Shown: in pieces, positions 3,181 to 31,824 of the stretch
How the letters are laid out: each line of letters opens with the position of its first letter
Numbering within the stretch: the stretch's first letter is position 1
Translations under genes and position numbers: made by a program
The notes under the pieces: model-generated
Databases searched by the model: none
Seen by the model: only the letters and a program-made list of their open reading frames with translations
Told to the model about the DNA's origin: nothing
Assembly: GCA_028279745.1 (NCBI GenBank)
Contig: JANQNC010000001.1
Span: 1,170,001 to 1,202,000 of the forward strand
Source: Candidatus Nanoarchaeia archaeon
GTDB lineage: Archaea > Nanobdellota > Nanobdellia > Woesearchaeales > JANQNC01
Direction: 5' to 3'
Length of the DNA stretch: 32,000 bases

Positions 3181-4254
3181 ATGAAAAAGGCAATAATATT
3201 GATTGTAATTTTTCTTTTTTCTGTTAGCTTTGCTTTTGCTATATGTGGCGATGGAACAGTTGATTCAGGCGAACAATGTGATGATGGTGATAGCATTAAC
3301 AGTAACGGTTGTAAAAATAATTGTAAAATGAGAGAGAATTATAGATGTGATCCTTTCTGGAACCAAAGTGCGGGTGCAGCAACAGGATCTGGACCAAGTG
3401 TTTGCACTTGGATATGTCGAAATGGTATAATTGAAGATTCAAGCAATTGTGAAGGACCTACAATTGATGGGTGTTTTTTGGATCCAAATGATCAGGAAGA
3501 GTGTGATGATGGGGATAATAATAATGCAAATGGCTGTAAAAATGGTTGCGGTATAAGAGATGGTTGGAGATGTGCTCCTTTCTTTAATGAAAGTTCGGGG
3601 CTTGCAACAGGATATGAAATAAGCAGTTGCGAATATCTTTGCGGTAATGAAGTAATTGATATAGATCAAGATACCTGTAAAGGGCCGGGTATAGATGGAT
3701 GTAAGTTTTATGGGGGAGGACTTACTTACGAAGAGTGTGATCACGGAAAACAATGTTACCAATACGGACCAGAATGTGACTCAGATGAAGATTGTGATGA
3801 AGGAGAAACGTGTGGAACCCATAATAACGATGGATGCAGCAGTTCTACATGTAGAATAGATGATGGTTGGGAGTGTTTACCGTTCTATAATGCAACTTCA
3901 GGTAATGCTAGTGATGGTGGAGAGAGTATCTGTGACAGACTTTGTACAAACTGTCAAATTGATAACTCTGATAATTGTTTAGGGCCTACAATTGATGGAT
4001 GTCATTTGAGTTGGAATGAAACTTGTGATGATGGTGAAGGCGGTAATTTAGATCATCATGACGGATGTGCAAGATTATGTACTATTAACGAGCCAGAAAA
4101 GTGGGATTTAGTAGATGTAAACGGAGATGGATTACATGATGGAGTTTGCGGTCTTGAATTACAAGAAGAACCAGTCCCTGAACTTAGTTCAATGGGGATT
4201 GTTGGAATAGTTTTAGTCTTAGGGTTAGGACTCTTTTTAATGAAGAAGAAGTGA
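3181..4254 (+). CDS. secreted cysteine-rich repeat protein (Myxococcus-type Cys-rich repeat / DUF4215-like modules) with a C-terminal VPEL-TM-KKK tail
   Basis: Signal peptide MKKAIILIVIFLFSVSFAFA. Repeated CGDG..D.GEQCDDGD....NGC...C modules. The C-terminus is EEPVPELSSMGIVGIVLVLGLGLFLMKKK. Confidence 0.85.
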   Translation: MKKAIILIVIFLFSVSFAFAICGDGTVDSGEQCDDGDSINSNGCKNNCKMRENYRCDPFWNQSAGAATGSGPSVCTWICRNGIIEDSSNCEGPTIDGCFLDPNDQEECDDGDNNNANGCKNGCGIRDGWRCAPFFNESSGLATGYEISSCEYLCGNEVIDIDQDTCKGPGIDGCKFYGGGLTYEECDHGKQCYQYGPECDSDEDCDEGETCGTHNNDGCSSSTCRIDDGWECLPFYNATSGNASDGGESICDRLCTNCQIDNSDNCLGPTIDGCHLSWNETCDDGEGGNLDHHDGCARLCTINEPEKWDLVDVNGDGLHDGVCGLELQEEPVPELSSMGIVGIVLVLGLGLFLMKKK

Positions 4255-4264
4255 GGTGAAGAAT

Positions 4265-4975
4265 ATGAAGAAAACGATTTTTATGGTGCTGATTGCATTG
4301 TTTGCAGTTGGTTTGGTGAGTGCAGATGATCCCGATTGTGGTGATTTCACATACCAAGAGGATTGTGAATATGTGTCGACACAAATAGAATGTGAGAATA
4401 GTCAAATGCCGACAGGTTATCCTTATGAAGGTTATCTTTGTGAATGGGATGCTGGTGAATGTGTTGCGAGTGACAACTATTGTGTTGAGGTTCCTCAGTG
4501 TGCAGATATTCAAGTATGGGATTGTGGTAATGTTCCTGATCAGGTAACTTGTGAAAACAGTTATGACTTTGGTAGTAGCGTAAATTGCATGTGGCTTAAC
4601 GGTTACTGCACTGAGGATGACTATACTGAATGTGAAACCTCTGGATGCGAATCTGATGATGATTGTTACGAGTTCAGTGAGTGTCTTGCAGCAAGTTGTG
4701 GTGCTGGAGGTGAGTGTGTTTTTGAATTAAGCAATGAAATGTGTGATGATAGTGAAGAGTGCACTGTTGACGTTTGTAATGAAGCAGGTAATGATGAGTA
4801 TTTATGCTCAAACACACCAGTAGCAGATGAAACACCTTGTACGGGCGGGACTTGTCAAGTTGGACAATGTGTTTTGATACAAGAAGACGAAGAAGTACCT
4901 GAGTTAAGTTCAATGGTAATTGGGGCTTTAGTCATTGCAGGCGCAGCAGCCTTCTTGGTGCTAAGAAAGAAATAA
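4265..4975 (+). CDS. secreted cysteine-rich acidic protein with a C-terminal VPEL-TM-RKK tail
   Basis: The ATG at 4265 is preceded by GAGGTGA. Signal peptide MKKTIFMVLIALFAVGLVSA. The mature part is rich in Cys and acidic residues. The C-terminus is EEVPELSSMVIGALVIAGAAAFLVLRKK. Confidence 0.8.
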   Translation: MKKTIFMVLIALFAVGLVSADDPDCGDFTYQEDCEYVSTQIECENSQMPTGYPYEGYLCEWDAGECVASDNYCVEVPQCADIQVWDCGNVPDQVTCENSYDFGSSVNCMWLNGYCTEDDYTECETSGCESDDDCYEFSECLAASCGAGGECVFELSNEMCDDSEECTVDVCNEAGNDEYLCSNTPVADETPCTGGTCQVGQCVLIQEDEEVPELSSMVIGALVIAGAAAFLVLRKK

Positions 4976-5026
4976 CACAAGAAAATCTGAAAGATTTTCT
5001 GTACACAACAAAACTTTGTTTTGTGT

Positions 5027-5088
5027 GCAAGAAATGCTCTGCATTTCTTTGCACCAAAAATCTTGTTTTTTTGTGTTTTCTTTTTTTT
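5027..5088 (+). terminator. stem-loop(s) followed by oligo-T tracts downstream of the 4265..4975 gene
   Basis: gcaagaaatgc-tct-gcatttctttgc forms a hairpin of 9 bp + bulge + 2 bp. T7 (5066-5072) and T8 (5081-5088) runs follow. Confidence 0.45.
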
Positions 5089-5213
5089 ATTTATTTTCTA
5101 GAAAGATTTAAATAATGATAAAATGAGTTAGTATACTTAATATGAATATGAATCAATTATATTGGTGGAAGTGCAGGAATGTTTTTAGTAAAAAGAAAAT
5201 AATGAGGTGAAAA

Positions 5214-5771
5214 ATGAGAAGAATAGTATTAGTCTTAATGGTGTTGTTTGCATTAAACTTAGTGAGTGCGCAACAGCAGCTTTGTTATGGTGAACTTGTT
5301 AATGATGAAGGGTTAATATGTGAAGATATATCAGAAGGGTATTGTAGTCAGTGGAGCGGAGACACTTATGAAGAGATAGATGGGCAATACTATCAATGTG
5401 AGTGGGGCAGAGATTTTGATGATCCAGAATTTGCTTGCTTTGATCCTAATCTGCAACAATGGAGACTTGACATAACTGATCAGGGGGTGTGTGTATCGGG
5501 TAATGGTTTTGACTGGATAGAGTATGAGCACTGTTTTCCATTAACATACTGCAATCCTTGCGGTAATGATTATGTAGATCCAGATGAACAATGCGGAGAA
5601 CCAGAACTTCTTAGTTGCGCATCAGGATTTGAATGTATAAATTGTGGCTGTGTCGATATGGAAGAATTTCCACAAGGAGGATCTGAAGTTCCAGAGTTAA
5701 ACACAACATCAATAATCTTAATAATTGCAGCTATTGCGGTAGGTGGAGTTATTATTTTGAAAAAAAGATAA
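5214..5771 (+). CDS. secreted cysteine-rich protein with a C-terminal VPEL-TM-KKR tail
   Basis: TGAGGTGA Shine-Dalgarno motif before the ATG. Signal peptide MRRIVLVLMVLFALNLVSA. A half DUF4215-like motif CGNDYVDPDEQCGEP. The C-terminus is SEVPELNTTSIILIIAAIAVGGVIILKKR. Confidence 0.8.
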   Translation: MRRIVLVLMVLFALNLVSAQQQLCYGELVNDEGLICEDISEGYCSQWSGDTYEEIDGQYYQCEWGRDFDDPEFACFDPNLQQWRLDITDQGVCVSGNGFDWIEYEHCFPLTYCNPCGNDYVDPDEQCGEPELLSCASGFECINCGCVDMEEFPQGGSEVPELNTTSIILIIAAIAVGGVIILKKR

Positions 5772-5873: not shown

Positions 5874-6260
5874 ATGTGGGAAGGAGGAAGAAGCACAGTA
5901 AGTTTTGTTCTAGGACTGATACTTATAGCAGTAGGACTGATACCGATACTAAACCAGTTTGGGGTTATTCCATTTGGATTGCCAGCGTTCTTATCTGGAT
6001 TAGTAAGCTCAATCATAATCTGGCTGATAGCAGGATCAGGACTATACTTGATAATAGAATCATTCATGGAAGGGCTGGATGAGCCATCAGCAAAATGGTT
6101 ACTTATAGTAGGATTAGTAGTTTTAGCATTAGGACTAATACCTTTACTGAACAGCTTAGGTGTAATACAGTTTACAGTACCATTGTTATCAATGATGCTA
6201 TTCAGAATAATCTTCGTGATTGAAGGCATACTGATGATAATTGGCGCATTTAATATGTAA
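5874..6260 (+). CDS. small polytopic membrane protein with internal duplication
   Basis: 128 aa with about 4 hydrophobic helices and a strong GAGGTGA SD. The two halves share LILIAVGLIPILNQFGVIPFGLP and LVVLALGLIPLLNSLGVIQFTVP. Confidence 0.7.
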   Translation: MWEGGRSTVSFVLGLILIAVGLIPILNQFGVIPFGLPAFLSGLVSSIIIWLIAGSGLYLIIESFMEGLDEPSAKWLLIVGLVVLALGLIPLLNSLGVIQFTVPLLSMMLFRIIFVIEGILMIIGAFNM

Positions 6261-6367: not shown

Positions 6368-7450
6368 ATGAACGTTCTAGACAAAGCAAAAATATTAGCA
6401 GAGGCAGGAGGTTATGATAGTTGCGGACCCAAACAATGTGAAGTAAAAATAAAAGAAGGTCTGGGTGGGATATACAACGCACAGACAGAACACAAGACCT
6501 GCAAAATATTCAAGACGCTGATGAGCAATTCATGCAAGTTTGACTGCAAATACTGCCAAAATGCCACTGGGTGTGAGAAGAAAAAAGTGAAATACAAACC
6601 AGAAGAGCTAGTAACTTTATTTGATTATCTGCATAAAAATTTAGCAGTAAATGGTTTGTTCTTAAGCTCGGGAGTAAGTGGCGACCCTGACAAAGTAACA
6701 GAAGAGATGATTGAAACAGTAAAAATATTAAGATTCCAAAAAAGGTTTAATGGGTATGTGCATTTTAAAGTTTTACCGGGAACATCCAAAGAATTGGTAA
6801 AACAAGCGTCTGAGTTATCAACCAGAATGAGCATAAACATAGAAGCACCAAACTCATCTGTGTTAAACGAGTTAAGCAGTTGTAAAGATTATAAGAGTGA
6901 TATAATCAGACGACAAAAATGGATCTCTAAACTAAATCTGGGAGGGGGACAAGCTACTCAAATGATAGTAAACAATCTAGCCACAGACAAAGAAGTACTA
7001 AAAATGACCGATTGGGAGTATAATGAGCTAAGCCTAAAGAGAGTTTATTATTCGTCCTTTAGACCAGTAAAAGGCACACCCTTAGAAAATGAAAAAGCAG
7101 AATCATTGTCAAGACAGAATCATCTTTACAATGTAGATTTCTTGTTGAGATCTTATGGCTATAAGCTAAAAGAGGTGAATCCTATAATGGATGAAGGAAT
7201 GCTGCCAAAAGAAGACCCAAAATTAGCGATGGCAAAAGCAAATTTCCAAGGAGCGATAGATGTCAATGAAGCAAGTTATGAAGAGTTAATTAGGATACCT
7301 GGCATAGGGCCAAAAACTGCAAGACGAATCAGAGGTGGAAACAAGATAAGAAAATATACTGACTTACATAAACTAGGCGGGTGGGTAAAAAGAGCTAAAC
7401 CATTCATAGAAGTTAATGGAAAAAGACAAAAAATGTTAACAGAATTTTAG
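6368..7450 (+). CDS. putative DNA modification/repair radical SAM protein with a C-terminal helix-hairpin-helix
   Basis: The N-terminal KILAEAGGYDSCGP motif and the Cx3Cx2C cluster CKFDCKYCQN are typical of this radical SAM subfamily. The C-terminal HhH is NEASYEELIRIPGIGPKTARRI. Confidence 0.85.
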   Translation: MNVLDKAKILAEAGGYDSCGPKQCEVKIKEGLGGIYNAQTEHKTCKIFKTLMSNSCKFDCKYCQNATGCEKKKVKYKPEELVTLFDYLHKNLAVNGLFLSSGVSGDPDKVTEEMIETVKILRFQKRFNGYVHFKVLPGTSKELVKQASELSTRMSINIEAPNSSVLNELSSCKDYKSDIIRRQKWISKLNLGGGQATQMIVNNLATDKEVLKMTDWEYNELSLKRVYYSSFRPVKGTPLENEKAESLSRQNHLYNVDFLLRSYGYKLKEVNPIMDEGMLPKEDPKLAMAKANFQGAIDVNEASYEELIRIPGIGPKTARRIRGGNKIRKYTDLHKLGGWVKRAKPFIEVNGKRQKMLTEF

Positions 7451-13847: not shown

Positions 13848-14489
13848 TTACCAAAGGAACCAGTCAGCAGTAATTAATACATAGATTATCAGGAACAAAT
13901 TAGCAGATGCGTGGCATTGGATACATGAAAAGATGTCTTTTCTGTAGTAAAGCCATAGGTTAAAGATTATACCTGCAATTATCCCGTTGATCCACATAGC
14001 ATGCATAAACCCAAAGATGGCTACGGTTAAGATAAAGCTTAGCCAACTAAATGTGCCAATAGGTAATTTATCCCATTTGTTTGAATCAACAAAGAACCGG
14101 ATAAGGAATGATCTGATAAATAATTCTTCAACAACAGCAGCAACAATAACCATGCCGATAAGTTTTGCAGCTATTAAGATGAAAGGGAATTGGGTGTTAA
14201 ACGGATTGAAAATTTCAAAGTCTGCAATATTTCCTTGATACGCAAAATTCCAACCAAAGTGTCTAGCGGCTAAATCAAAACCAATCCAGATCAAGATAAG
14301 ACCTAGGCCCATAAGCCATGCAGCGGGGTCAAACTTAGCCTTGATCTCCTTATACTGTTTCCAGAAGTAAGCAATTACTGCTAAACCTGCAATAGCTCTA
14401 ACTATGTAAGCAATATATGTATCAACTCCAAAACTAGGAAGAAACATAGCAAATAATACAACAAAAAAAGGGATTAGATATTTTTTCAT
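13848..14489 (-). CDS. CPBP-family (CAAX protease-like, Abi) intramembrane metalloprotease
   Basis: All three CPBP motifs are present: EExxxR (VVEELFIRSF), FxxxH (FGFMHAMW) and HxxxN (HASANL). Polytopic. The start overlaps the upstream ORF stop as ATGA (14486-14489). Confidence 0.85.
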   Translation of the reverse strand: MKKYLIPFFVVLFAMFLPSFGVDTYIAYIVRAIAGLAVIAYFWKQYKEIKAKFDPAAWLMGLGLILIWIGFDLAARHFGWNFAYQGNIADFEIFNPFNTQFPFILIAAKLIGMVIVAAVVEELFIRSFLIRFFVDSNKWDKLPIGTFSWLSFILTVAIFGFMHAMWINGIIAGIIFNLWLYYRKDIFSCIQCHASANLFLIIYVLITADWFLW

Positions 14490-20328: not shown

Positions 20329-20442
20329 TTTGTCAAAAAAAGAGAAGGTTGTTTAAAACACTTTTGTCTCGGAAATTGTATATTCAAAAAGGAAACCTTT
20401 TTAAAGGAAAAAACTGAGTTTAGTGGTTAAGGGGGTTGTTTG

Positions 20443-23400
20443 ATGAAACTAAGCAAGGTCTTTCTAAAAGAGACCGTAATTGGGATGTCAGTAATACTGT
20501 TTGCATTACTTGTTGTACTAATTGCAGGGCCTCAAGATGGGCTGACTGGACATGCTGTTTATGAAGAATGTCAAAACTGCACCTCCGTAAATTCTTTAGA
20601 GATGAAGTATTTGGGTGAAGCTGAGGATGAAGTGGCTTATGTTTATTCTATGCAGGGTGTTGATGAGTATACAATAGACGAAGATGGAATGTTTACAGTC
20701 GTTGATGTATATGATGAGATGATAGTCTCAGTCGGAGATGTTAATGAAACAATCAATGCATCGTGTGGAAGTTCTTTAGAAAGTGGAGATGAGTTTGGAG
20801 AGCTGGTCATCGAGAGTGTTGATACAGGAGTAGAGGAAGTTTGTGAGCTAATTGAGATCCCAGATGAAAATGAAACAAACGAAACAGTTGGTCTGAATGT
20901 TACTTTGAATGAGACAATCGTTAATGAAACAATAAATGAAACTTTTGTGAATGAAACCATTAATGAAACTGTAAATGAAACTGTAGAGATAAATGTTACA
21001 ATTAATGAAACTAATCAAACTGTTGAGGTAAATGTTACTGTCAATGAAACTAATCAAACAATAAATGAAACGGCTGAAGAAAATACAACTGATGATTATG
21101 GATCTTTCTCTTATTGTCTAGACAAAGATAATGATGGATATTATGTAACAAACACATCTGCATGTGAAACCTTTATCGTTGTGGAGAATGACGGAAATGT
21201 GATTGCACCAGCAGGCTTTATGGAAGTTAAGGTAATGGCTGCAGAAATAACCTATGGAGCAACAGGACCAGAGATAGATGTATACGTGAAACTTATCGAA
21301 GACGGAGACTACACAACCTTATTTGGTGGAGTGGATGTAGATGGAAATGAAGCGTATAACAAAACACTAACATCAGAAACAGAGATAGCAATAGAAGGAA
21401 GAGCAAAATATGGAAGAAGATTCGACAGAACATACAGATCAGACACAGGAAGCGATCATGTAGAAGTATTGATGGATGGAGACGATCTTCCAGATTATGC
21501 GCCATTTGGAAATCAAGATTCTTTATCGACTATAATTGCGCCATTCGTAGATGAAAATAATAAGATAGACATAGATGTCAACCAAGTATTATTCTTATTC
21601 GAGTTTGCAACACTAAACACCGATGCGGCAGACTTCCAAGACTTAGTAGTATTATTAACATTTGAACCAGACGACTTTCCTTGCGAGTGTGGTGAGTTTG
21701 ATTGTGACGAGAATGATCCAAACATAAACCCTGGTGCCGCAGAAATATGTGACGGGATAGACAACGATTGTGACTTTTTTGCAGATGAAGAATTTGATGA
21801 TGACGGAGACGGATTTACTGTGTGTGGAGGAGACTGTAATGATAATGATGTTAACATAAATCCAAACGCAACTGAAATATGCAACTTCTTAGATGATGAC
21901 TGCGATGGAGAAATAGATGAAGGATTTGACTTAGATAATGATGGGTTTACAACATGCGGAGGAGATTGTGATGATAACAATTCAGAAGTAAACCCAGACG
22001 CTACAGAAATATGCGACGATGAAATTGACAATGATTGTAATGGTGATGTGGATTTTGAAGATGATGAATGTGCAAACATTTTACCAACAGCATCAATCAT
22101 AAGTCCTCTGTCAGGAAGTAACTTCAAACTAAACGAACAGATAGTATTCTCAGGAATCGGTACAGATAGTGATGGAACAGTTGTAAGTTACTCATGGGCA
22201 TCTAACGTTGACGGAACATTTGGAAGCAATGGAACTGTAACACACTCAGGACTTTCAATAGGAACACACGTAATCACACTGACTGTTACAGATGATCGAG
22301 GAGGACAGACAACAGATACAGTAACAATCACAATACTTGCTTTAAATTCACCAACAGCATCAATAATATCTCCTGCAGATGGATCAGACTTCAAACACAC
22401 AAACGAAATAACATTCTCAGGATTAGGAGATGATACAGACGGAACAATTGTAGGTTACTCTTGGGAGTCAAACGTAGATGGGGTATTGAATGATTCGTCC
22501 TTATTTACAACAAATGCATTAAGTGTGGGCATACATACAATAACATTCACAGTAGAAGATGATGATGGACTAACAGATGTAGATGAGATCACAATAACAG
22601 TAAAAGAGTTAGAGGCACCAACAGCTTCAATACTTTCACCTAACGATGGAGATGATTTCAAAGACGGAGACAATGTGTTGTTTTCGGGAACAGGATCAGA
22701 TACTGATGGAAGTGTTGTAAGTTACCAATGGTCATCAAGCATCGATGGTTTGATAGGAAACACAACATCATTCTCAACAACAGACTTGACAGTAGGATTA
22801 CATGAGATTGTACTAGTTGTAGTGGATGATGATGGATTAAATGATACAGACAGCATAGAGATTGAGGTAAAAGCATTGCGAGCACCTACAGCATCAATCA
22901 TATCGCCTAATGACGGAGACCATTACAAAGAAGCAGATAACATACTGTTTAGCGGAACTGGAAGTGATCCAGATGGTTATATCACAAAATGGTATTGGAG
23001 TTCTAGCGTTGATGGCTTGTTTAAAGAACAAACTGGAGGAAATGCAAGCACATTCTTCTATGACTCACTAAGTTTAGGAACACACGATATTACTCTGACA
23101 GTTGTAGACAATGATGGGTTACAATATGTTGATACATTTACAGTAACAATTGATGTAAACCCATTATTTGCACCAACCGCATCAATCATAACGCCACTGG
23201 ATGGAGTAGTATTCAGAGAAGGAGAAGTTATTGTCTTTAGTGGATATGGAGATGACATAAACGGAAATGTGACAGACTATGATTGGGTTTCAAGTTTAGA
23301 TGGAAGCATTGGAAGCGATATGACATTTACACATTCTAGTCTAAGTTTAGGAGAGCATGATATAACACTAATTGTTACAGACGATGACGGGCAAACAGGA

Positions 23401-26400
23401 GATGACACAATAACCATCACAATAATTGACAACGATTCACCAACCGCATCAATCACATCGCCAACAGATGGGGATAGTTACAAAGAAGGACACACAATCT
23501 TGTTTAACGGATACGGAGACAATGAAACTATAGTTGGATATTCATGGGCAAGTAATTTGGATGGTGTGATAGGTAATAGTTCAACATTCTCACTTGATAG
23601 CTTAACAGTGGGAGAACATGTAATAACCTTTACAGTATTAGACGATGATGGACAGACAGGATCAGACTCAATCACGATAAACGTAAATGCATTAGAAGCG
23701 CCAACAGTTTCAATAATAGCTCCACTAGATGGTTCTGATTACAAACATACACAACCAGTATACTTCGAAGGTGTAGGAACCGATACAGATGGAACAATTG
23801 AAAGTTACCATTGGACTTCTGATGTGGATGGGGTGATAGGGAATTCAAGCAGCTTCATAACAAGCACATTATCAACAGGACTGCATACAGTAACTTTAAC
23901 AGTAATAGATAGTGATGGTTTAGTGGGAACTGATGAGATTGAGTTAACAATAAAAGTTTTAGAAGCACCAACCGTATCGATACTTTCTCCTGATGATGGA
24001 GACAACTTCAAAGAGAATGACTCAATATTATTTAGCGGGATAGGAACAGATGCTGATGGAGTAATAACACAATGGTACTGGTCATCAAGTATAGATGGAT
24101 TAATGCATGAACAGACAGGAGGAAGTGCTAGTACGTTCTACTATCATTCATTAAGTTTAGGAACACATTTGATCACAGTTACAGTAATAGATGATGATGG
24201 ATTGCAGTATGTAGATACATTTACTGTTACAATAGATGTTAATCCTGAGTTTGCGCCAACAGCGTCTATAATCAGTCCGTTAGATGGAGTGGTCTTTAGA
24301 GATAATGATCTGATTGTCTTTAGCGGGCTAGGTGATGATGTAAATGGAGTTGTTGAAAGTTATCATTGGGTAAGCAGTGTGGATGGAACCTTAGGAGATA
24401 GTATGACATTTAACTCAACCGCATTAAGTGTTGGGACACATGACATAACATTAACTGTAACAGATGATGATGGACAGACAGGAGATGACACTATCAGCAT
24501 TACAGTGTTGGATAATGATATGCCAACAGCATCAATCATGGCACCAACCGATAACGATAATTTCAAAGATGGCCAAACAATATTATTCAGCGGGTTAGGA
24601 GGAGATGAAGTTATAACTGGATACGCTTGGTCAAGCAACATAGACGGTTTGATTGGAAACCTGTCTTCTTTTTCAACTTCAGATCTTAGTCTAGGAGAAC
24701 ATATCATTACATTTAGAGTGTTTGATGATGACGGACAGTCAGGTTCAGACTCAATCACGATTACAATAAATCCTTTAGTAGCACCAACCGCTTCTATAGT
24801 TAGTCCATTAGATGGAACAGATTACAAAGATGGACAAACTGTGCTATTTAGCGGGGTGGGAACAGACACAGACGGTGTGATCTCAAGTTATTACTGGAGT
24901 TCAAGTATAGATGGAGTTATTGGGAATTCGAGCAGTTTCAGTTCAAGCAATCTATCAGTCGGTCTTCATACTATAACATTCAGAGTAGTTGATGATGACA
25001 GCTTAATATCAACAGACACGATAGAAATTACAATCAAAGCACTAGAAGCACCTACTGCTTCTATACTAAGTCCAAATGATGGAGATCATTACAAAGAAAA
25101 TGACTCAATACTATTTAGCGGGACAGGAAGCGATCCCGATGGAGCTATAGTGAAGTGGACCTGGAGCTCAAGCATAGACGGACTGATCAAAGAACAGAAT
25201 GGGGGAACATCAAGCACATTCTTCTACAATGGATTAAGTTTAGGAACACACGATATAACATTAACTGTGGTTGATGATGACGGACTAAAATATGTAGATA
25301 CATTCACAGTAACAGTTGATGTAAATCCATTATTTGCACCAACAGCTTCTATTATTTCACCTCTTGGCGGCACAGTATTCAGAGATGATGACTTAATCGT
25401 GTTTAGTGGTTATGGTGATGATGTCAATGGAGTTGTTGAAGGTTATAGTTGGGTTTCAAGCTTAGACGGCACTATCGGAAATAATATGACATTCACCACA
25501 GATTTACTAAGCCAAGGAGTACACACTGTAACACTAACAGTAACAGATGATGATGGTCAGACAGGAGACGACACAATACAAATTACTGTGTTAGACAATG
25601 ATTCGCCTACCGCATCAATCACATCTCCAAATGATAATGACAATTTCAAAGAAGGACAAGAAATACTGTTTAGTGGGTATGGGGATAACGAGGTTATCAC
25701 TTCATACACTTGGACAAGTAATTTAGATGGAGTAATAGGAAGTGGTGCTACATTCTCAACAACAAACTTGACAGTAGGAGAACATGAAATAACCTTAACA
25801 GTATTAGATGATGATGGTCAAACCGGGTTTGACACAATAACTATAACAGTTAATGCATTAGAAGCACCAACAGTATCTATAATAGCTCCTCTGGATGGGG
25901 CAGATTACAAATACACATATCCTGTTTACTTTGAAGGTGTGGGGAGTGATTCAGATGGGGTTGTGGTTAATTACCAGTGGACTTCTGACATCGATGGGGT
26001 CATAGGAAACACAAGCAGTTTCATTACTGATGAACTTTCATTGGGATTACACACCATCACTCTTACTATTGTAGATGATGATGGGCTAATAGCAACAGAC
26101 GAGATAGAAGTAACAATAAAGCCATTGACTGCGCCTTCAGTGTCTATCTTAAGTCCAGATGAAGGAGATCACTTCAAAGAGAACGATTCAATATTATTTA
26201 GCGGGATAGGAACAGATTCAGATGGAATAATAACACAATGGTATTGGTCAAGCAGTATAGATGGATTATTCCATGAACAAACTGGGGGAAGTGCAAGTAC
26301 ATTCTATCACAATGAGCTGAGCTTAGGAACACACCTAATAACTGTAACAATCATAGACGATGATGGACTACAATATGTAGACACATTCACAGTAACAATT

Positions 26401-29400
26401 GACCTAAATCCAGAATTCGCACCAACAACATCTATAATTTCACCATTAGATGGATCAACATTTAGATCAGGAGACAATGTATTGTATAGTGGGTATGGAG
26501 ACGACATAAATGGATACATAACAGACTATTACTGGACATCAGACATAGATGGAGTGATAGGAAATGAGATGACATTTAGTTATTCTAATTTGACTGTGGG
26601 GCTTCATACAATAACATTGACTGTGACAGATGATGATGGGCAAACAGGAGACGATTCAATAACTGTAACTGTACTAGATAATGATGTGCCGACATCATCA
26701 ATAGTATCGCCAGGTGAAGGAGATAACTTCAAAGATGGACAGAGCATATTATTCAGTGGAGTGGGAGATAATGAAGTCATAACCGGATATGAATGGGTGT
26801 CAAACATAGACGGAGGATTAGGAAATAGTTCAACATTCTCAACTTCAATACTAAGTCTGGGTGAGCATACAATAACATTTAGAGTGTTTGATGATGACGG
26901 ACAATCTAACTCAGACTCAATAATGATCACAATAAATCCATTAGTTGCACCAACCGCTTCAATCATAAGTCCAATAGATGGAACAGACTACAAAGACGGC
27001 CAAACAGTGTTGTTTAATGGGATTGGAAGTGATACAGATGGTTTGATAGCTAGTTATTACTGGTCATCAGATGTAGATGGAGTAATAGGAAACACAAGCA
27101 GCTTTAGTTCAAACAACTTATCAGTTGGATTGCATACGATAACATTCAGGGCGGTAGATGAAGATGGGTTAATGGCATCAGATAGTGTAGACATAACAAT
27201 CAAAGCACTAGAAGCACCAACAGCTTCAATAATCAATCCAAACGATGGAGATCACTATAAAGAAAATGATTCAATCTTATTTAGTGGAATTGGATCAGAT
27301 CCAGATGGTGCTATAGTGAAGTGGTATTGGTCATCAAGTATAGATGGATTATTCCATGAACAAACTGGAGGATTAGCAAGCACATTCTATTATAACTCTT
27401 TGAGTCTAGGAACTCACCTGATTACATTAACAGTTGTAGATGACGACGAAATAAAATATGTAGATACATTCACAGTAACAATTGACGTAAATCCATTATT
27501 TGCACCAACAGCGTCTATCTTAAGTCCTGTAGAGGGCACAGTCTTTAGAGATGGAGACAGAGTGTTGTTTAGTGGATATGGCGATGACATAAATGGAGTT
27601 GTTGAAAGTTACTATTGGACATCAGACAAAGAAGGTGTTTTAGGAAATACAATGACATTTAATGTTTCTACCTTAAGTGTTGGGGTGCATGAGATAACAC
27701 TAACAGTTACAGACGATGACGGGCAAACAGGAGACGACTCAATTGTCATAACTGTACTAGATAACGATTCACCAACAGCATCAATCACATCACCTGCAGA
27801 TGGAGACAATTTCAAAGAAGGACAAAACATATTCTTCACAGGACTAGGGGATAATGAGGTCATTAGTTCATACACATGGGTAAGCAGTCTAGATGGAAGC
27901 TTAAGCTCAAGCCAGTCATTCACATACTCAGAGTTGACTATAGGCGAACATGTAATCACACTAACTGTAACAGATGATGATGGACAGTCAGCATCAGACT
28001 CAATTACAGTTACAATAAACCCATTAGTTGCACCGGTAGCATCAATAATCTCACCAGTGGACCAAGCAGACTACAAAGAAAACCAGTTTGTAATGTTCAA
28101 TGGGGTCGGGAGTGATAGCGACGGAAGCATAGTAGATTACTACTGGACATCAGACGTAGAAGGAGTAGTAGGTAATGGAAACATGTTCAGTACTGATGAG
28201 CTATCAATAGGCTATCACACAATAACACTAACAGTTGTAGATAATGACGGATTGATAGGAACTGATGAGTTGGAGATAACAATCAAACCATTAACAGCAC
28301 CAACCGCATCAATCGTAAAACCAGACACGGGAGACCACTTCAAAGAACAAACACCAGTAGAGTTCATCGGCTCTGGCTCAGATCCAGACGGTGAGATAAT
28401 AGAATGGATATGGACAAGCGATGTAGATGGAGAGTTTGGTAGTTCGCAAAGGTTCAACTATTCAGAACTAAGTCTGGGAAGACACGATGTCACTTTGACT
28501 GTAGTGGATGATGACGCACTAAGATACACAGACACATTCACAATATGGATAGAGATAGATCCTCTAAGATCACCTAATGTAACCATAACAACACCACAAG
28601 ATAAAATTACAGTGAAAGAAGATGTAGTGGTTGTATTTGATGCGAACGTAACATATGACCCTGTATCAACAGGATCGTCATACTACTGGGTGAGCGACAT
28701 AGATGGAATGCTGGATGAAGGAACAGGAGTTCCAGTGTTGTTTAGTACGGATGAGTTATCTATTGGATATCATACAATAACACTAACAACAATAGACTCA
28801 AGAAACTTATCAGGATCAGACACAGTGCATCTATGGATAGCACCATTGCTTTCTCCAGAAGTCAATATCAGTTCACCACCAAATAACTCAACATACTGGG
28901 AAGGAGACTCAATCAATTTCTCCGCATTGATAACAGATGACGGAACGATACAATCAATACTATGGAACTCAGATCTAGACGGAAATATTGGAAACAGTTC
29001 AAACTTCACCTACTCAGGATTAACAGTAGGAGAACACAGAATAACCTTGATAGTTGTAGATGATGATAATTTAACCACGGTAACACAAATAACTGTGCTT
29101 ATCAAGAAAAAAGAATCAGGCGGAGGAGATGATGACGATGATGAAGATGGAGGCGGATCTGGAGGCTCCGGAGGATTAGGAGGAATACCTAAACCAGTCG
29201 AAATTGAAGAACCTGAAGAGTTAGAAGAAGGACTTCAGATAAAAATAGTGGAATCACCTTCCGGACTAAATATTGAAGAAGGAAAATTCGTTATTGTTGC
29301 AGAAATAATAAACAATGGAGACACTGTGTTGAAGGATATTAATGCGGAATTAGAAAAGATTGATGGATGGAAATCTAATACAGTATACATCGGTGAGTTA

Positions 29401-29916
29401 GCTGTTGATGAAAGAGTAATTGTTACATTCGAAGTAGAATCAGAAATATGTGCGCTTGGGAAAGAAGTAGGACAAATAGACAGAGAGCTAGAAATAGTTG
29501 CGGTGGCAGAGAATGAAGCTGTAAGTGATACAGATAAAGTGATGGTGGATGTAGAAGCAGAAACATTTGCAGTATTAAATGATGTAATTGACAATCAGAT
29601 AAAAGTATGTTTCATTATAGACAATAAAGGTAATGATGAAAGAAATAAAGTAGAGATAGAAATTGGAGTGTATGAAGAGGAGATAGCAGTGCTTCTTGAC
29701 TACATAACAAACATAGACGTAGAGAGTGACGAAATATTTATAAAAACAAAAGAGTATGAGTTAAGCTATATACCAGAAACAAAAAGCTACACATTAAGAG
29801 CAGACCTTTACGAAAAGGGAAAATTGTTCAGTAGCGAATATAAAATAGCAGACTCAGAAACTCAAGTAGAACTGCAAAAAACAGGAAAATCATTATGGGA
29901 ACAGATGTTTTCGTAA
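20443..29916 (+). CDS. giant (3157 aa) N-terminally anchored cell-surface protein with 26 PKD-like domains; putative adhesin
   Basis: Uninterrupted 9474-nt ORF in AT-rich DNA. The ATG at 20443 follows GGGGG. N-terminal TM VIGMSVILFALLVVLIAG. PKD-type motifs (Y.W.S..DG and H.ITLTV.DDDG) recur 26 times. See the repeat features below. Confidence 0.95.
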   Translation: MKLSKVFLKETVIGMSVILFALLVVLIAGPQDGLTGHAVYEECQNCTSVNSLEMKYLGEAEDEVAYVYSMQGVDEYTIDEDGMFTVVDVYDEMIVSVGDVNETINASCGSSLESGDEFGELVIESVDTGVEEVCELIEIPDENETNETVGLNVTLNETIVNETINETFVNETINETVNETVEINVTINETNQTVEVNVTVNETNQTINETAEENTTDDYGSFSYCLDKDNDGYYVTNTSACETFIVVENDGNVIAPAGFMEVKVMAAEITYGATGPEIDVYVKLIEDGDYTTLFGGVDVDGNEAYNKTLTSETEIAIEGRAKYGRRFDRTYRSDTGSDHVEVLMDGDDLPDYAPFGNQDSLSTIIAPFVDENNKIDIDVNQVLFLFEFATLNTDAADFQDLVVLLTFEPDDFPCECGEFDCDENDPNINPGAAEICDGIDNDCDFFADEEFDDDGDGFTVCGGDCNDNDVNINPNATEICNFLDDDCDGEIDEGFDLDNDGFTTCGGDCDDNNSEVNPDATEICDDEIDNDCNGDVDFEDDECANILPTASIISPLSGSNFKLNEQIVFSGIGTDSDGTVVSYSWASNVDGTFGSNGTVTHSGLSIGTHVITLTVTDDRGGQTTDTVTITILALNSPTASIISPADGSDFKHTNEITFSGLGDDTDGTIVGYSWESNVDGVLNDSSLFTTNALSVGIHTITFTVEDDDGLTDVDEITITVKELEAPTASILSPNDGDDFKDGDNVLFSGTGSDTDGSVVSYQWSSSIDGLIGNTTSFSTTDLTVGLHEIVLVVVDDDGLNDTDSIEIEVKALRAPTASIISPNDGDHYKEADNILFSGTGSDPDGYITKWYWSSSVDGLFKEQTGGNASTFFYDSLSLGTHDITLTVVDNDGLQYVDTFTVTIDVNPLFAPTASIITPLDGVVFREGEVIVFSGYGDDINGNVTDYDWVSSLDGSIGSDMTFTHSSLSLGEHDITLIVTDDDGQTGDDTITITIIDNDSPTASITSPTDGDSYKEGHTILFNGYGDNETIVGYSWASNLDGVIGNSSTFSLDSLTVGEHVITFTVLDDDGQTGSDSITINVNALEAPTVSIIAPLDGSDYKHTQPVYFEGVGTDTDGTIESYHWTSDVDGVIGNSSSFITSTLSTGLHTVTLTVIDSDGLVGTDEIELTIKVLEAPTVSILSPDDGDNFKENDSILFSGIGTDADGVITQWYWSSSIDGLMHEQTGGSASTFYYHSLSLGTHLITVTVIDDDGLQYVDTFTVTIDVNPEFAPTASIISPLDGVVFRDNDLIVFSGLGDDVNGVVESYHWVSSVDGTLGDSMTFNSTALSVGTHDITLTVTDDDGQTGDDTISITVLDNDMPTASIMAPTDNDNFKDGQTILFSGLGGDEVITGYAWSSNIDGLIGNLSSFSTSDLSLGEHIITFRVFDDDGQSGSDSITITINPLVAPTASIVSPLDGTDYKDGQTVLFSGVGTDTDGVISSYYWSSSIDGVIGNSSSFSSSNLSVGLHTITFRVVDDDSLISTDTIEITIKALEAPTASILSPNDGDHYKENDSILFSGTGSDPDGAIVKWTWSSSIDGLIKEQNGGTSSTFFYNGLSLGTHDITLTVVDDDGLKYVDTFTVTVDVNPLFAPTASIISPLGGTVFRDDDLIVFSGYGDDVNGVVEGYSWVSSLDGTIGNNMTFTTDLLSQGVHTVTLTVTDDDGQTGDDTIQITVLDNDSPTASITSPNDNDNFKEGQEILFSGYGDNEVITSYTWTSNLDGVIGSGATFSTTNLTVGEHEITLTVLDDDGQTGFDTITITVNALEAPTVSIIAPLDGADYKYTYPVYFEGVGSDSDGVVVNYQWTSDIDGVIGNTSSFITDELSLGLHTITLTIVDDDGLIATDEIEVTIKPLTAPSVSILSPDEGDHFKENDSILFSGIGTDSDGIITQWYWSSSIDGLFHEQTGGSASTFYHNELSLGTHLITVTIIDDDGLQYVDTFTVTIDLNPEFAPTTSIISPLDGSTFRSGDNVLYSGYGDDINGYITDYYWTSDIDGVIGNEMTFSYSNLTVGLHTITLTVTDDDGQTGDDSITVTVLDNDVPTSSIVSPGEGDNFKDGQSILFSGVGDNEVITGYEWVSNIDGGLGNSSTFSTSILSLGEHTITFRVFDDDGQSNSDSIMITINPLVAPTASIISPIDGTDYKDGQTVLFNGIGSDTDGLIASYYWSSDVDGVIGNTSSFSSNNLSVGLHTITFRAVDEDGLMASDSVDITIKALEAPTASIINPNDGDHYKENDSILFSGIGSDPDGAIVKWYWSSSIDGLFHEQTGGLASTFYYNSLSLGTHLITLTVVDDDEIKYVDTFTVTIDVNPLFAPTASILSPVEGTVFRDGDRVLFSGYGDDINGVVESYYWTSDKEGVLGNTMTFNVSTLSVGVHEITLTVTDDDGQTGDDSIVITVLDNDSPTASITSPADGDNFKEGQNIFFTGLGDNEVISSYTWVSSLDGSLSSSQSFTYSELTIGEHVITLTVTDDDGQSASDSITVTINPLVAPVASIISPVDQADYKENQFVMFNGVGSDSDGSIVDYYWTSDVEGVVGNGNMFSTDELSIGYHTITLTVVDNDGLIGTDELEITIKPLTAPTASIVKPDTGDHFKEQTPVEFIGSGSDPDGEIIEWIWTSDVDGEFGSSQRFNYSELSLGRHDVTLTVVDDDALRYTDTFTIWIEIDPLRSPNVTITTPQDKITVKEDVVVVFDANVTYDPVSTGSSYYWVSDIDGMLDEGTGVPVLFSTDELSIGYHTITLTTIDSRNLSGSDTVHLWIAPLLSPEVNISSPPNNSTYWEGDSINFSALITDDGTIQSILWNSDLDGNIGNSSNFTYSGLTVGEHRITLIVVDDDNLTTVTQITVLIKKKESGGGDDDDDEDGGGSGGSGGLGGIPKPVEIEEPEELEEGLQIKIVESPSGLNIEEGKFVIVAEIINNGDTVLKDINAELEKIDGWKSNTVYIGELAVDERVIVTFEVESEICALGKEVGQIDRELEIVAVAENEAVSDTDKVMVDVEAETFAVLNDVIDNQIKVCFIIDNKGNDERNKVEIEIGVYEEEIAVLLDYITNIDVESDEIFIKTKEYELSYIPETKSYTLRADLYEKGKLFSSEYKIADSETQVELQKTGKSLWEQMFS
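20869..21090 (+). repeat. N-x-T sequon microrepeat: 17 N-glycosylation sequons in 74 codons, based on a reiterated AATGAAAC unit
   Basis: NETNETVGLNVTLNETIVNETINETFVNETINETVNETVEINVTINETNQTVEVNVTVNETNQTINETAEENTT, counted by hand. Confidence 0.9.
21682..22071 (+). repeat. three tandem Cys/Asp-rich repeats resembling the MopE-type 'putative metal-binding motif'
   Basis: DCDENDPNINPGAAEICDGIDNDCD / GGDCNDNDVNINPNATEICNFLDDDCDGEIDEGFD / GGDCDDNNSEVNPDATEICDDEIDNDCNGDVD. Confidence 0.7.
22078..29109 (+). repeat. array of 26 tandem PKD/Ig-like domain-coding repeats (87-96 codons each)
   Basis: Each unit reads (L/N)xxPT(A/V)SIxSPxDGxxFKxxxxIxFSGxGxDxDGxxxxYxWxSxxDGxxGxxxxFxxxxLxxGxHxITLTVxDDDGxxxxDxIxIxV. 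Unit boundaries were located by hand at 22081, 22342, 22609, 22876, 23164, 23431, 23692, 23959 and onward. Confidence 0.9.
22876..28290 (+). repeat. five head-to-tail super-repeats of exactly 1083 nt (361 codons = four PKD-like subtypes of 96+89+87+89 codons)
   Basis: Equivalent first codons of the 96-codon subtype fall at 22876, 23959, 25042, 26125 and 27208. The next unit starts at 28291. Every interval is 1083 nt. Confidence 0.9.
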
Positions 29917-30732: not shown

Positions 30733-31824
30733 TTATCTACTTCTACTCTTACTTAACATATAACCAATGAAAAGAACAGCGACCACAACAATGATCAGGA
30801 TAAACATCAGGAAATCATTTTTGTTCAATTCTTCATCCTCATTGAAAGGAATCATACCTTCACTATCTTCACCATTTGCAGATCCATCTGTGCTATCTGT
30901 CGGTTGAGTATTATCTGGGTTTGTGGTTGATGAATCTCTAGGAGTGGGAGTTATGCCAGATCCTTCGCTGCCTGGACCTCCTGCACCACCGCTGCCTTCA
31001 CCTTCACCAGAAGCACCACCTTCGCCAGTGTTGTTTGTAGGGACTGGAGGAGGTAAACCAGGATCAGGTATCCAATCTTTCTTCAAAGGAAGATTATCCG
31101 TATTGGAACCAATTGCAACAGTGTCATCACAGAAACTGTCGTAGTTATCATCCAAGCAACCTTGACCTTCTAAGCCGAAATCACCCCAATAGTTTCCGCC
31201 TGTGTTTGGACCATCAACAACATTCCTCTTAGTCTTTTGAGGAACATTCCAGTTATTATTGCTATTATCAAAAGCGTTAACCGCATTAGCTAGATAGTTA
31301 TCATAAAAGTAGTTATTGTTGGAGTTGTCAACGTAAATACCAGAACCTTGAGCACCAGTAATAGTATTAGAGTAAAACTGGTTATTATTTGAGTTAACTA
31401 CATGTACGCCATGAACAGCAGAATCAGTTATTTCGTTTTCAATTATTACATTAGTAGATGATTGAACAACCTTGATACCTGTGTCACAGCTATCTATAGT
31501 ATTGTATGCTACGCTGCTGCCATCACTGCCTATAGAAACACCTTGTTGTATGCCTATTTGGAAGTTCTCAACAGTACAATGACTTACGCTTAACTCAGAG
31601 AAGTCCTGCATCAGAATGCCTGTGCCAGAACCATCGCCTCTAATAACGTGGTCGTTACAGTTAAGGATTACATCATTGGCACCAATTGTCAAACCATCGT
31701 CTGAACAGTTAAGATCTTCAAGTAGGTCTACACTTTCAGTAAGAACATCGCCGCAGCTTACAGCAAATGCTGTGCTGATTGATAATAAAATTGCAAATAA
31801 AAACGTATAGTATTTCATATTCAT
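30733..31824 (-). CDS. secreted right-handed parallel beta-helix (NosD-like / PbH1 repeat) protein with a Gly/Ser/Pro/Thr-rich stalk and a C-terminal TM anchor
   Basis: Signal peptide MNMKYYTFLFAILLSISTAFA. Repeats are N.I..N.I......G(I/V).V..S..N (e.g. NVIIENEITDSAVHGVHVVNSNNNQFYSNTITGAQGSGIYVDNSNNNYFYDN). GGNYWGDF and D..CDD...I....D..PL motifs are typical of NosD-type domains. The C-terminus is FLMFILIIVVVAVLFIGYMLSKSRSR. Confidence 0.8.
   Translation of the reverse strand: MNMKYYTFLFAILLSISTAFAVSCGDVLTESVDLLEDLNCSDDGLTIGANDVILNCNDHVIRGDGSGTGILMQDFSELSVSHCTVENFQIGIQQGVSIGSDGSSVAYNTIDSCDTGIKVVQSSTNVIIENEITDSAVHGVHVVNSNNNQFYSNTITGAQGSGIYVDNSNNNYFYDNYLANAVNAFDNSNNNWNVPQKTKRNVVDGPNTGGNYWGDFGLEGQGCLDDNYDSFCDDTVAIGSNTDNLPLKKDWIPDPGLPPPVPTNNTGEGGASGEGEGSGGAGGPGSEGSGITPTPRDSSTTNPDNTQPTDSTDGSANGEDSEGMIPFNEDEELNKNDFLMFILIIVVVAVLFIGYMLSKSRSR

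Follow-up and report, generated by a model that had tools for sequence, protein, structure and literature searches.

Which proteins a cell keeps on its surface is determined by C-terminal sorting signals. Among the systems described in archaea, the archaeosortase ArtA removes the C-terminal helix of the PGF-CTERM signal and a lipid is attached (PMC6098224), and archaeosortase C (ArtC) pairs with the PEF-CTERM signal (PMC5244752). The DNA analysed here is a stretch of 32 kb (G+C 36-39%) from contig JANQNC010000001.1 of a Candidatus Nanoarchaeia archaeon, referred to below as the window. It encodes three Cys-rich secreted proteins, T1, T2 and T3, which all end in the motif VPEL, a transmembrane (TM) helix and a basic cluster. 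With moderate confidence, we favour reading these VPEL tails as a sorting signal that resembles PEF-CTERM and is specific to the lineage, with a predicted processing that is split between an exosortase and a protease of the CPBP family. The genes and tails are located as follows.

3181-4254, plus strand: T1 gene, an open reading frame (ORF) for a 357-residue Cys-rich secreted protein with a signal peptide
4174-4251, plus strand: tripartite tail of T1, with VPEL at 4174-4185 (GTCCCTGAACTT), a TM helix and KKK
4265-4975, plus strand: T2 gene, an ORF for a 236-residue Cys-rich secreted protein
4895-4972, plus strand: tripartite tail of T2, with VPEL at 4895-4906 (GTACCTGAGTTA), a TM helix and RKK
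5214-5771, plus strand: T3 gene, an ORF for a 185-residue Cys-rich secreted protein
5688-5768, plus strand: tripartite tail of T3, with VPEL at 5688-5699 (GTTCCAGAGTTA), a TM helix and KKR

The N-termini of T1-T3 consist of K/R residues, a hydrophobic stretch and an A-x-A-like site, as in a signal peptide, and the proteins are rich in Cys (14-34 residues, 7.6-10.2%) and in D+E (about 18-21%). Their extreme C-termini share a tripartite layout of VPEL[SN][ST], 17-20 hydrophobic residues and KKK, RKK or KKR, the tails reading EEPVPELSS-MGIVGIVLVLGLGLFLM-KKK in T1, EEVPELSS-MVIGALVIAGAAAFLVL-RKK in T2 and SEVPELNTT-SIILIIAAIAVGGVIIL-KKR in T3. No other ORF of the window carries a VPEL-type tail. 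The bodies of the three proteins are dissimilar. T1, with 34 Cys residues, contains four acidic Cys-rich repeats of the DUF4215/myxo_disulf_rpt type (TIGR02232, 39 bits against a cutoff of 20.8, in four stretches; PF13948), and scans of the domain libraries revealed no known domains in T2 and T3. In BLASTP comparisons T1 and T2 share the tail, the signal peptide and a weak Cys-rich similarity and nothing more, no similarity of T3 to T1 or T2 was found, and the sole match of full-length T2 among 5.8 billion proteins is T2 itself. The VPEL codons differ among the three genes and the DNA encoding the tails is only 44-58% identical, which rules out a recent duplication. ORFs, composition and BLASTP thus agree with an earlier note on this DNA, which had reported three same-strand genes for Cys-rich proteins with signal peptides and dissimilar bodies, had placed the VPEL motifs at exactly these positions, and had concluded from their different codons that no DNA had been duplicated recently.

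The sorting-domain models of NCBIfam release 20 (matches listed to E≤10) show how the tails relate to named signals. Among them, PEF-CTERM (TIGR03024) fits the window tails best, with its first position at the V of VPEL. The tails resemble the PEF-CTERM/ArtC (TIGR03762) system in their archaeal host, in the same tripartite design and in the V-P-E-x start, but they have Leu where the family has Phe: all three window tails read P-E-L, and their relatives PEF, PEL or PEI. TIGR03024 gives 14.9 bits to the T1 tail, 14.8 bits to full-length T3 and 19.5 bits to the T3 tail alone, against a cutoff of 23, and no match to T2, so the tails are not ordinary PEF-CTERM members. Related VPEF and IPEF tails also remain mostly under this cutoff (11.6-17.4 bits). 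However, the tail VPEFPT... of a protein from a related locus (L028, see below) passes the model with 23.6 bits, and the VPEL tails are not a separate class but lie at the edge of a continuous [VI]PE[LFI] range, which grades into PEF-CTERM. The earlier view that the tails belong to no named class thus holds as far as the cutoffs are concerned, but not in the sense of a distinct class. The same view had put PEF-CTERM and the bacterial VPEID-CTERM closest; the former is indeed the best model, whereas the VPEID-CTERM model matches neither T1-T3 nor the isolated tails at E≤10, and the likeness to that system lies in the enzymes. The difference from PEP-CTERM amounts to one position (VPEP versus VPEL), at which the second Pro of PEP is replaced, and one related tail falls 1.2 bits short of the PEP-CTERM cutoff (14.8 against 16).

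The LPXTG model TIGR01167 matches the TM and basic part alone (model positions 11-32), with 16-18 bits for the isolated tails and 8.8 bits for full-length T2; an LPXTG motif is absent from the window tails. The same partial match is seen in a tail-family member, P0032, which belongs to a 'Candidatus Woesearchaeota archaeon' record (MBD3249041.1 / MBD3249835.1), ends in AVPEFSTVGLILAVAIAGLGIALIVKRKK and is named 'LPXTG cell wall anchor domain-containing protein' by NCBI. Here only the helix and the basic part are matched, just above the cutoff of 15.9 bits. The LPXTG label of this protein is an annotation artefact, and mis-annotation of such tails as LPXTG is probably systematic in archaeal metagenome-assembled genomes.

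To find related tails, a 36-column profile of the three window tails was compared by HMMER with 1.84 billion cluster representatives (E≤1e-3). Eleven proteins were retrieved, T1-T3 and eight others, and the tail is thus not confined to the three window proteins. In all eight others the match is located at the C-terminal end or at most 13 residues from it, with a helix and a K/R cluster coming after the motif; the tails start with EIPEINST, EVPELTST, RVPELSTI, QVPEFSSV, PVPEFSSV, AVPEFSTV, TVPEFGTS and EIPEFSTT. These proteins are mostly small and Cys-rich with a signal peptide, one of them containing DUF7901, and several tail proteins have sizes of 74-155 residues. The signature of the family is [VI]-P-E-[L/F/I]-[S/N/T/G]-[S/T]. 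The acidic run that the earlier note had described as the first part of the tail, together with motif, helix and basic end, is present in T1-T3, but is only a tendency in the wider family. A fixed Cys upstream of the motif was considered and rejected, as its spacing varies (the nearest Cys is 7-13 residues away) and some members lack it. A search with the 45-residue tails in an index of 5.8 billion proteins, which is blind to short variable tails, gave three word-sharing candidates, none of which obtained a score. The bodies that bear the tails are unrelated, including DUF4215 repeats, DUF7901, choice-of-anchor N and orphan Cys-rich domains. By recurring on such non-homologous proteins, the signature behaves as a modular sorting signal would in exosortase/archaeosortase systems, the kind of signal that the earlier note had proposed. 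In other contigs, related tails are encoded near CPBP and exosortase genes.

Hidden Markov models (HMMs) of Pfam and NCBIfam revealed in the window an exosortase-associated CPBP protease that the earlier note had overlooked.

13848-14489, minus strand: CPBP/Rce1-like glutamic intramembrane protease of 213 residues (PF02517; TIGR03008)

The protein reaches 116.2 bits on the equivalog model TIGR03008 (pepcterm_CAAX), well over the cutoff of 81.05. The next-best model is TIGR04162 (XrtE), with 61 bits against 150 and a match restricted to positions 329-515 of 516, which form the protease half of that enzyme. In an alignment of 17 sequences, from 23 homologues found, the catalytic motifs EExxxR, FxxxH and HxxxN are intact and invariant (E121, E122, R126, F159, H163, H193 and N197), and all 17 aligned homologues match both TIGR03008 and the protease half of XrtE at E≤1e-5. 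An AlphaFold model of the protein has a pLDDT of 90, and its top Foldseek match, MmRce1 (4cad), is not significant. A search of viral contigs with the CPBP alignment gave no match. To our knowledge, the role of the CAAX-type protease that is associated with exosortases has been open since the description of PEP-CTERM; a role is implied by its fusion in XrtE. We regard the window CPBP as the candidate enzyme that processes the tails or assists in their processing.

The neighbourhoods of CPBP homologues in other contigs connect this protease with tails and with exosortases. The loci of interest, with the identity of their CPBP to that of the window, are given below.

L003: CPBP of 52% identity; a 194-residue protein ends in NMVPEISPAGFLISLFAVAMIIVYAVRKR, a VPEI tail
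L003, 9014-9892, minus strand: 292-residue protein, which has a signal peptide and contains the tripartite segment PIPEFSTIGIIIAIAVIFVSFFFIRKNTNKK internally
L007: CPBP of 52% identity; a protein with an IPEFSTT tail is encoded 0.66 kb downstream
L015: CPBP of 41% identity; two ORFs, ending in VVPEFSTV... and EIPEFSTI..., follow from 51 bp downstream
L028: CPBP of 43% identity; a 202-residue protein ending in VPEFPTIAIPALISLGIIFLIFRKRRKN is encoded 47 bp upstream
L010: CPBP of 48% identity; a 321-residue exosortase is encoded 2.3 kb away, among genes of the exopolysaccharide (EPS) type
L030: CPBP of 54% identity; a 319-residue exosortase is encoded divergently adjacent

Proteins with a [VI]PE[FI] tail are thus encoded within 1.9 kb of CPBP homologues in four independent contigs, and an exosortase-family gene lies within 2.3 kb of a CPBP homologue in three (L003, L010 and L030). 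In L003, where a 327-residue Exosortase_EpsH protein is encoded 34 bp after the CPBP gene, the VPEI-tail protein, the protein with the internal segment, the CPBP and the exosortase are all found inside 3.5 kb. The 202-residue protein of L028, which passes the PEF-CTERM model, also passes 'choice-of-anchor N' (47.6 against 40). The association was surveyed with the pattern [VIL]PE[FLIVMP]-TM-basic over 2,444 six-frame ORFs from 234 kb of non-redundant DNA (the window and related loci). Nine ORFs match, with no obviously spurious ORF among them; all nine are located in five CPBP-containing regions and six of them within 1.9 kb of the CPBP gene. Since the comparison loci were all retrieved via the CPBP gene, this survey shows the linkage to CPBP but cannot rank CPBP against the exosortase.

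The 292-residue protein of L003 deviates from the general layout. Its segment PIPEFST-TM-RKNTNKK occupies residues 174-205 and is followed by a second TM helix and an extra domain of ~70 residues. It resembles a non-C-terminal ArtA substrate of Haloferax, in which an internal tripartite segment is processed as well (PMC6098224). The region 1400-7282 of L010 is AT-rich (33% GC) and contains the exosortase amid two Bac_transf genes, an NTP_transferase and a Wzz/CbiA-type chain-length regulator, a cluster that recalls bacterial PEP-CTERM/EPS loci; a Cys/Asp-rich secreted protein is incomplete at the contig end. A supposed synteny of TrmB between the window and L007 was rejected, the identity being only 27%.

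The small size of several tail proteins, their Cys-rich nature and their position next to a CPBP gene could also suggest bacteriocin- or toxin-like products, with the CPBP as their immunity or maturation protein. Members of PF02517, the 'CAAX protease self-immunity' family, act in bacteriocin immunity or processing. A C-terminal TM helix with a basic cluster, however, anchors a protein and does not signal its release, large adhesin-like repeats and a choice-of-anchor domain occur among the bodies, and the CPBP clade is the exosortase-linked one; we regard this explanation as very improbable.

The three exosortases of L003, L010 and L030 share 40-43% identity with one another. They pass the generic model TIGR04178 (46-54 bits against 23), but stay below the cutoffs of the subfamilies, with 33-54 bits against 150 for the exosortase half of XrtE, 37-39 against 208 for XrtA and 29-35 against 100 for ArtC. 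The exosortase half of XrtE (model positions ~100-297) is the best or joint-best subfamily match for two of them (L003 and L030). Cys225, Arg272 and His293 are invariant in all three and correspond to the proposed Cys/Arg/His catalytic triad of the exosortase family (10.1101/2023.06.07.544157). The three proteins represent an unclassified subfamily of the exosortases/archaeosortases. A search of a genome collection with the exosortase alignment yielded, among the matches listed, one distant Pseudomonadota exosortase (L027).

The bacterial VPEID-CTERM/XrtE system shares with the archaeal loci the V-P-E core and the pairing of exosortase and CPBP protease activities. In contrast to XrtE, the two activities are encoded by separate archaeal genes, which are adjacent in L003 and L030 and 2.3 kb apart in L010, and only the CPBP is present in the window; the archaeal scores are 33-99 against the cutoff of 150 and no fused enzyme is encoded. 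The exosortase and its adjacent CPBP are a two-gene version of what XrtE combines in one protein, in an archaeal instead of a bacterial host. The system of PEP-CTERM, exosortase A and a CAAX partner (TIGR03008) is similar in that the window CPBP is a scoring member of the partner family, and the exosortase of L010 is likewise found in an EPS-type cluster; unlike the PEP-CTERM bacteria, the archaeal host has no outer membrane, and the exosortases score far below XrtA. As to ArtC, we know of no separate CPBP partner in the system as described.

An exosortase may not be needed at all if the TIGR03008-clade protease alone reads the VPE[LFI] motif and cuts away the helix, as a myxosortase would. 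This would fit the loci in which a tail gene adjoins a CPBP gene and no exosortase is encoded in the flanking DNA at hand, namely L007 (10 kb upstream), L015 (10 kb downstream) and L028, as well as the window, which has tails and a CPBP with intact catalytic motifs and no exosortase within its 32 kb. The MYXO-CTERM/myxosortase system also has a CPBP intramembrane protease encoded beside targets with tripartite tails, and T1 even carries the myxobacterial-type acidic Cys-rich repeat. Signals of the myxosortase type, however, require an invariant Cys in the motif, which is missing from the VPE[LFI] signature, and the window CPBP is far under the myxosortase cutoffs (Mrt_core 22.2 against 100, MrtJ 24.7 against 75) and above that of TIGR03008. 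Moreover, three CPBP homologues are encoded within 2.3 kb of an exosortase and both activities are fused in XrtE, so that sorting by CPBP alone seems unlikely. In a wider form, the idea is that in this lineage of small-genome archaea a TIGR03008-clade CPBP recognises and removes the Cys-less [VI]PE[LFI] tails instead of an exosortase or independently of one. The CPBP is considered as the tail-removing enzyme because its gene is the one most consistently encoded beside the tails. We regard this wider proposal as doubtful; if true, the 'PEP-CTERM-associated CAAX protease' family would gain its first function, and archaea would have a CPBP sorting pathway that does not depend on Cys.

The genomic context also bears on another explanation of the tails, as plain unprocessed TM anchors of type-I surface proteins. 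VPEL would then be a juxtamembrane motif that is kept for structure or as the remnant of an ancient 3' cassette common to the genes, with the nearby CPBP a coincidence. This agrees with scores under all curated cutoffs, with a window that encodes no sortase-type enzyme and whose CPBP gene lies 8-11 kb off among unrelated genes, and with the ordinary C-terminal TM anchor of another surface protein of the window, a NosD-like protein (30733-31824). However, the anchor of the NosD-like protein lacks the motif, which shows that the motif is not general to C-terminal anchors here. In addition, the same motif occurs at the same position before the helix in many non-homologous proteins from different samples, it is written in different codons, and the tail genes repeatedly abut CPBP and exosortase genes. 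Plain anchoring is therefore considered improbable.

According to the reading that we prefer, a PEF-CTERM-like signal processed by an exosortase together with a CPBP protease, T1-T3 would be exported through Sec by means of their N-terminal signal peptides, and the C-terminal helix would first hold them in the membrane with the K/R cluster on the cytoplasmic side. VPEL would then be recognised at the outer face of the membrane and the helix removed. The machinery is predicted to be embedded in the membrane and to consist of an exosortase-family enzyme with Cys, Arg and His and a glutamic protease of the TIGR03008-type CPBP clade, between which the labour would be divided. The Cys-rich ectodomains would remain on the cell surface, presumably attached to a lipid as for ArtA substrates. 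This mechanism implies that T1-T3 undergo cleavage and anchoring, and that an exosortase is encoded elsewhere in the genome of this archaeon.

Several observations weigh against this interpretation. None of the named NCBIfam sorting-domain models reached its cutoff on the window tails. As the earlier note had stated, no archaeosortase is encoded in the window: searches with Pfam, NCBIfam and a clade-specific HMM (E≤10) found no exosortase or archaeosortase (PF09721/TIGR04178) in the 32 kb, whereas of about 14 independent loci with a homologous CPBP, 3 have an exosortase gene nearby. The link between CPBP and tails within the window is weak, as the CPBP gene is located 8.1 kb from T3 and 8-11 kb from the tail genes as a group, on the opposite strand and with housekeeping genes (exosome, proteasome, SBDS) between them. 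Four further loci with a CPBP gene and several kb of flanking DNA (L004, L008, L011 and L012) contain no tails and no exosortase, and the retrieval of all comparison loci through CPBP biases the neighbourhood statistics toward this protease.

The architecture and the logic of exosortase/archaeosortase systems are already known. New are the variant of the signature, which has L or I in place of F or P and is outside the curated models, the finding of this variant in DPANN-type archaea, an exosortase subfamily that is unclassified, and the close linkage, seen repeatedly, between tails and a TIGR03008-clade CPBP protease that stands alone. DPANN-type archaea live attached to hosts, and their surface proteins are likely machinery for contact and adhesion. 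The tail class is missed by the curated models or mislabelled as LPXTG, so that the surface proteomes of these archaea are under-annotated. With a 185-residue substrate, a 213-residue protease and an exosortase of ~320 residues, the set of tail, CPBP and exosortase is also compact for probing the role of the CAAX-type protease.

The organisation of the tail genes suggests two transcription units. T2 most likely starts at the ATG at 4265, which gives the 236 residues of the database protein P0001, and not at the GTG at 4256; its start lies 10 nucleotides past the stop of T1, and T1 and T2 are probably co-transcribed. T3 is preceded by its own intergenic region, a spacer of 238 bp (4976-5213) with perfect short hairpins (AGAAAATCT/AGATTTTCT and AAGAAATGC/GCATTTCTT) and long T-runs.

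4980-5076, no strand assigned: hairpin cluster in the T2-T3 spacer, consisting of the short inverted repeats I1-I6 followed by T-runs

The spacer likely combines the terminator of T1-T2 with a promoter region, which would make T3 a separate unit. At 100 nucleotides downstream of T3, a membrane protein of 128 residues with four helices is encoded (5874-6260, plus strand), which shows an internal duplication (GLIPILNQFGVIPF / GLIPLLNSLGVIQF). It was considered as a hidden sortase and rejected, as it contains no Cys and no His and matches no family.

Two small genes are situated directly upstream of the CPBP gene, both also called in Logan contig L002.

14486-14731, minus strand: ORF of 81 residues
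14689-14931, minus strand: ORF of 80 residues

The two ORFs overlap, and the end of the downstream ORF shares 4 nucleotides with the start of the CPBP gene. The same order is kept in L013 (207-706), with 62-69% identity. Each protein has an N-terminal TM helix, an xTG[MF]S[IV] motif and a C-terminal TM helix. Possibly they are accessory proteins or substrates, and we assign them to the system only tentatively. The combination of an N-terminal TM helix and, after it, xTG[YFMH][AS][VI] is common to both small proteins, to a 151-residue ORF upstream of the CPBP gene of L004 (9549-10004) and to the N-terminus of a giant protein of the window (20440-20600), the variants being ATGMSI, ITGFSV, ITGYAV and LTGHAV. 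To judge from the sequences, the shared motif may serve in N-terminal processing or sorting.

This giant surface protein (20440-29916, plus strand) comprises 3158 residues with about 12 PKD/K319L-like repeats, Big_7 and Cu-binding motifs of the MopE type; it has an N-terminal TM helix, no C-terminal anchor and no VPE tail. The NosD-like protein on the minus strand (30733-31824) is a beta-helix protein with a signal peptide and a C-terminal TM helix that is followed by SKSRSR, with no VPE motif. Further genes of the window encode Rrp41, Rrp42 and Rrp4 of the exosome, SBDS, proteasome alpha and Pop5, which mark the DNA as archaeal. Database copies of the window proteins all belong to one contig of 1,301,350 bp, and the archaeon is thus likely DPANN-like with a small genome. 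The ORF at 6368-7450 (plus strand) combines a radical-SAM with a helix-hairpin-helix domain and resembles the 'putative DNA modification/repair radical SAM protein' TIGR03916, on which it obtains 252 bits, under the cutoff of 343. Finally, a Logan contig of the same organism (L001) contains a LAGLIDADG homing-endonuclease-like ORF (91-672), a few kb upstream of the flavin reductase gene of the window.

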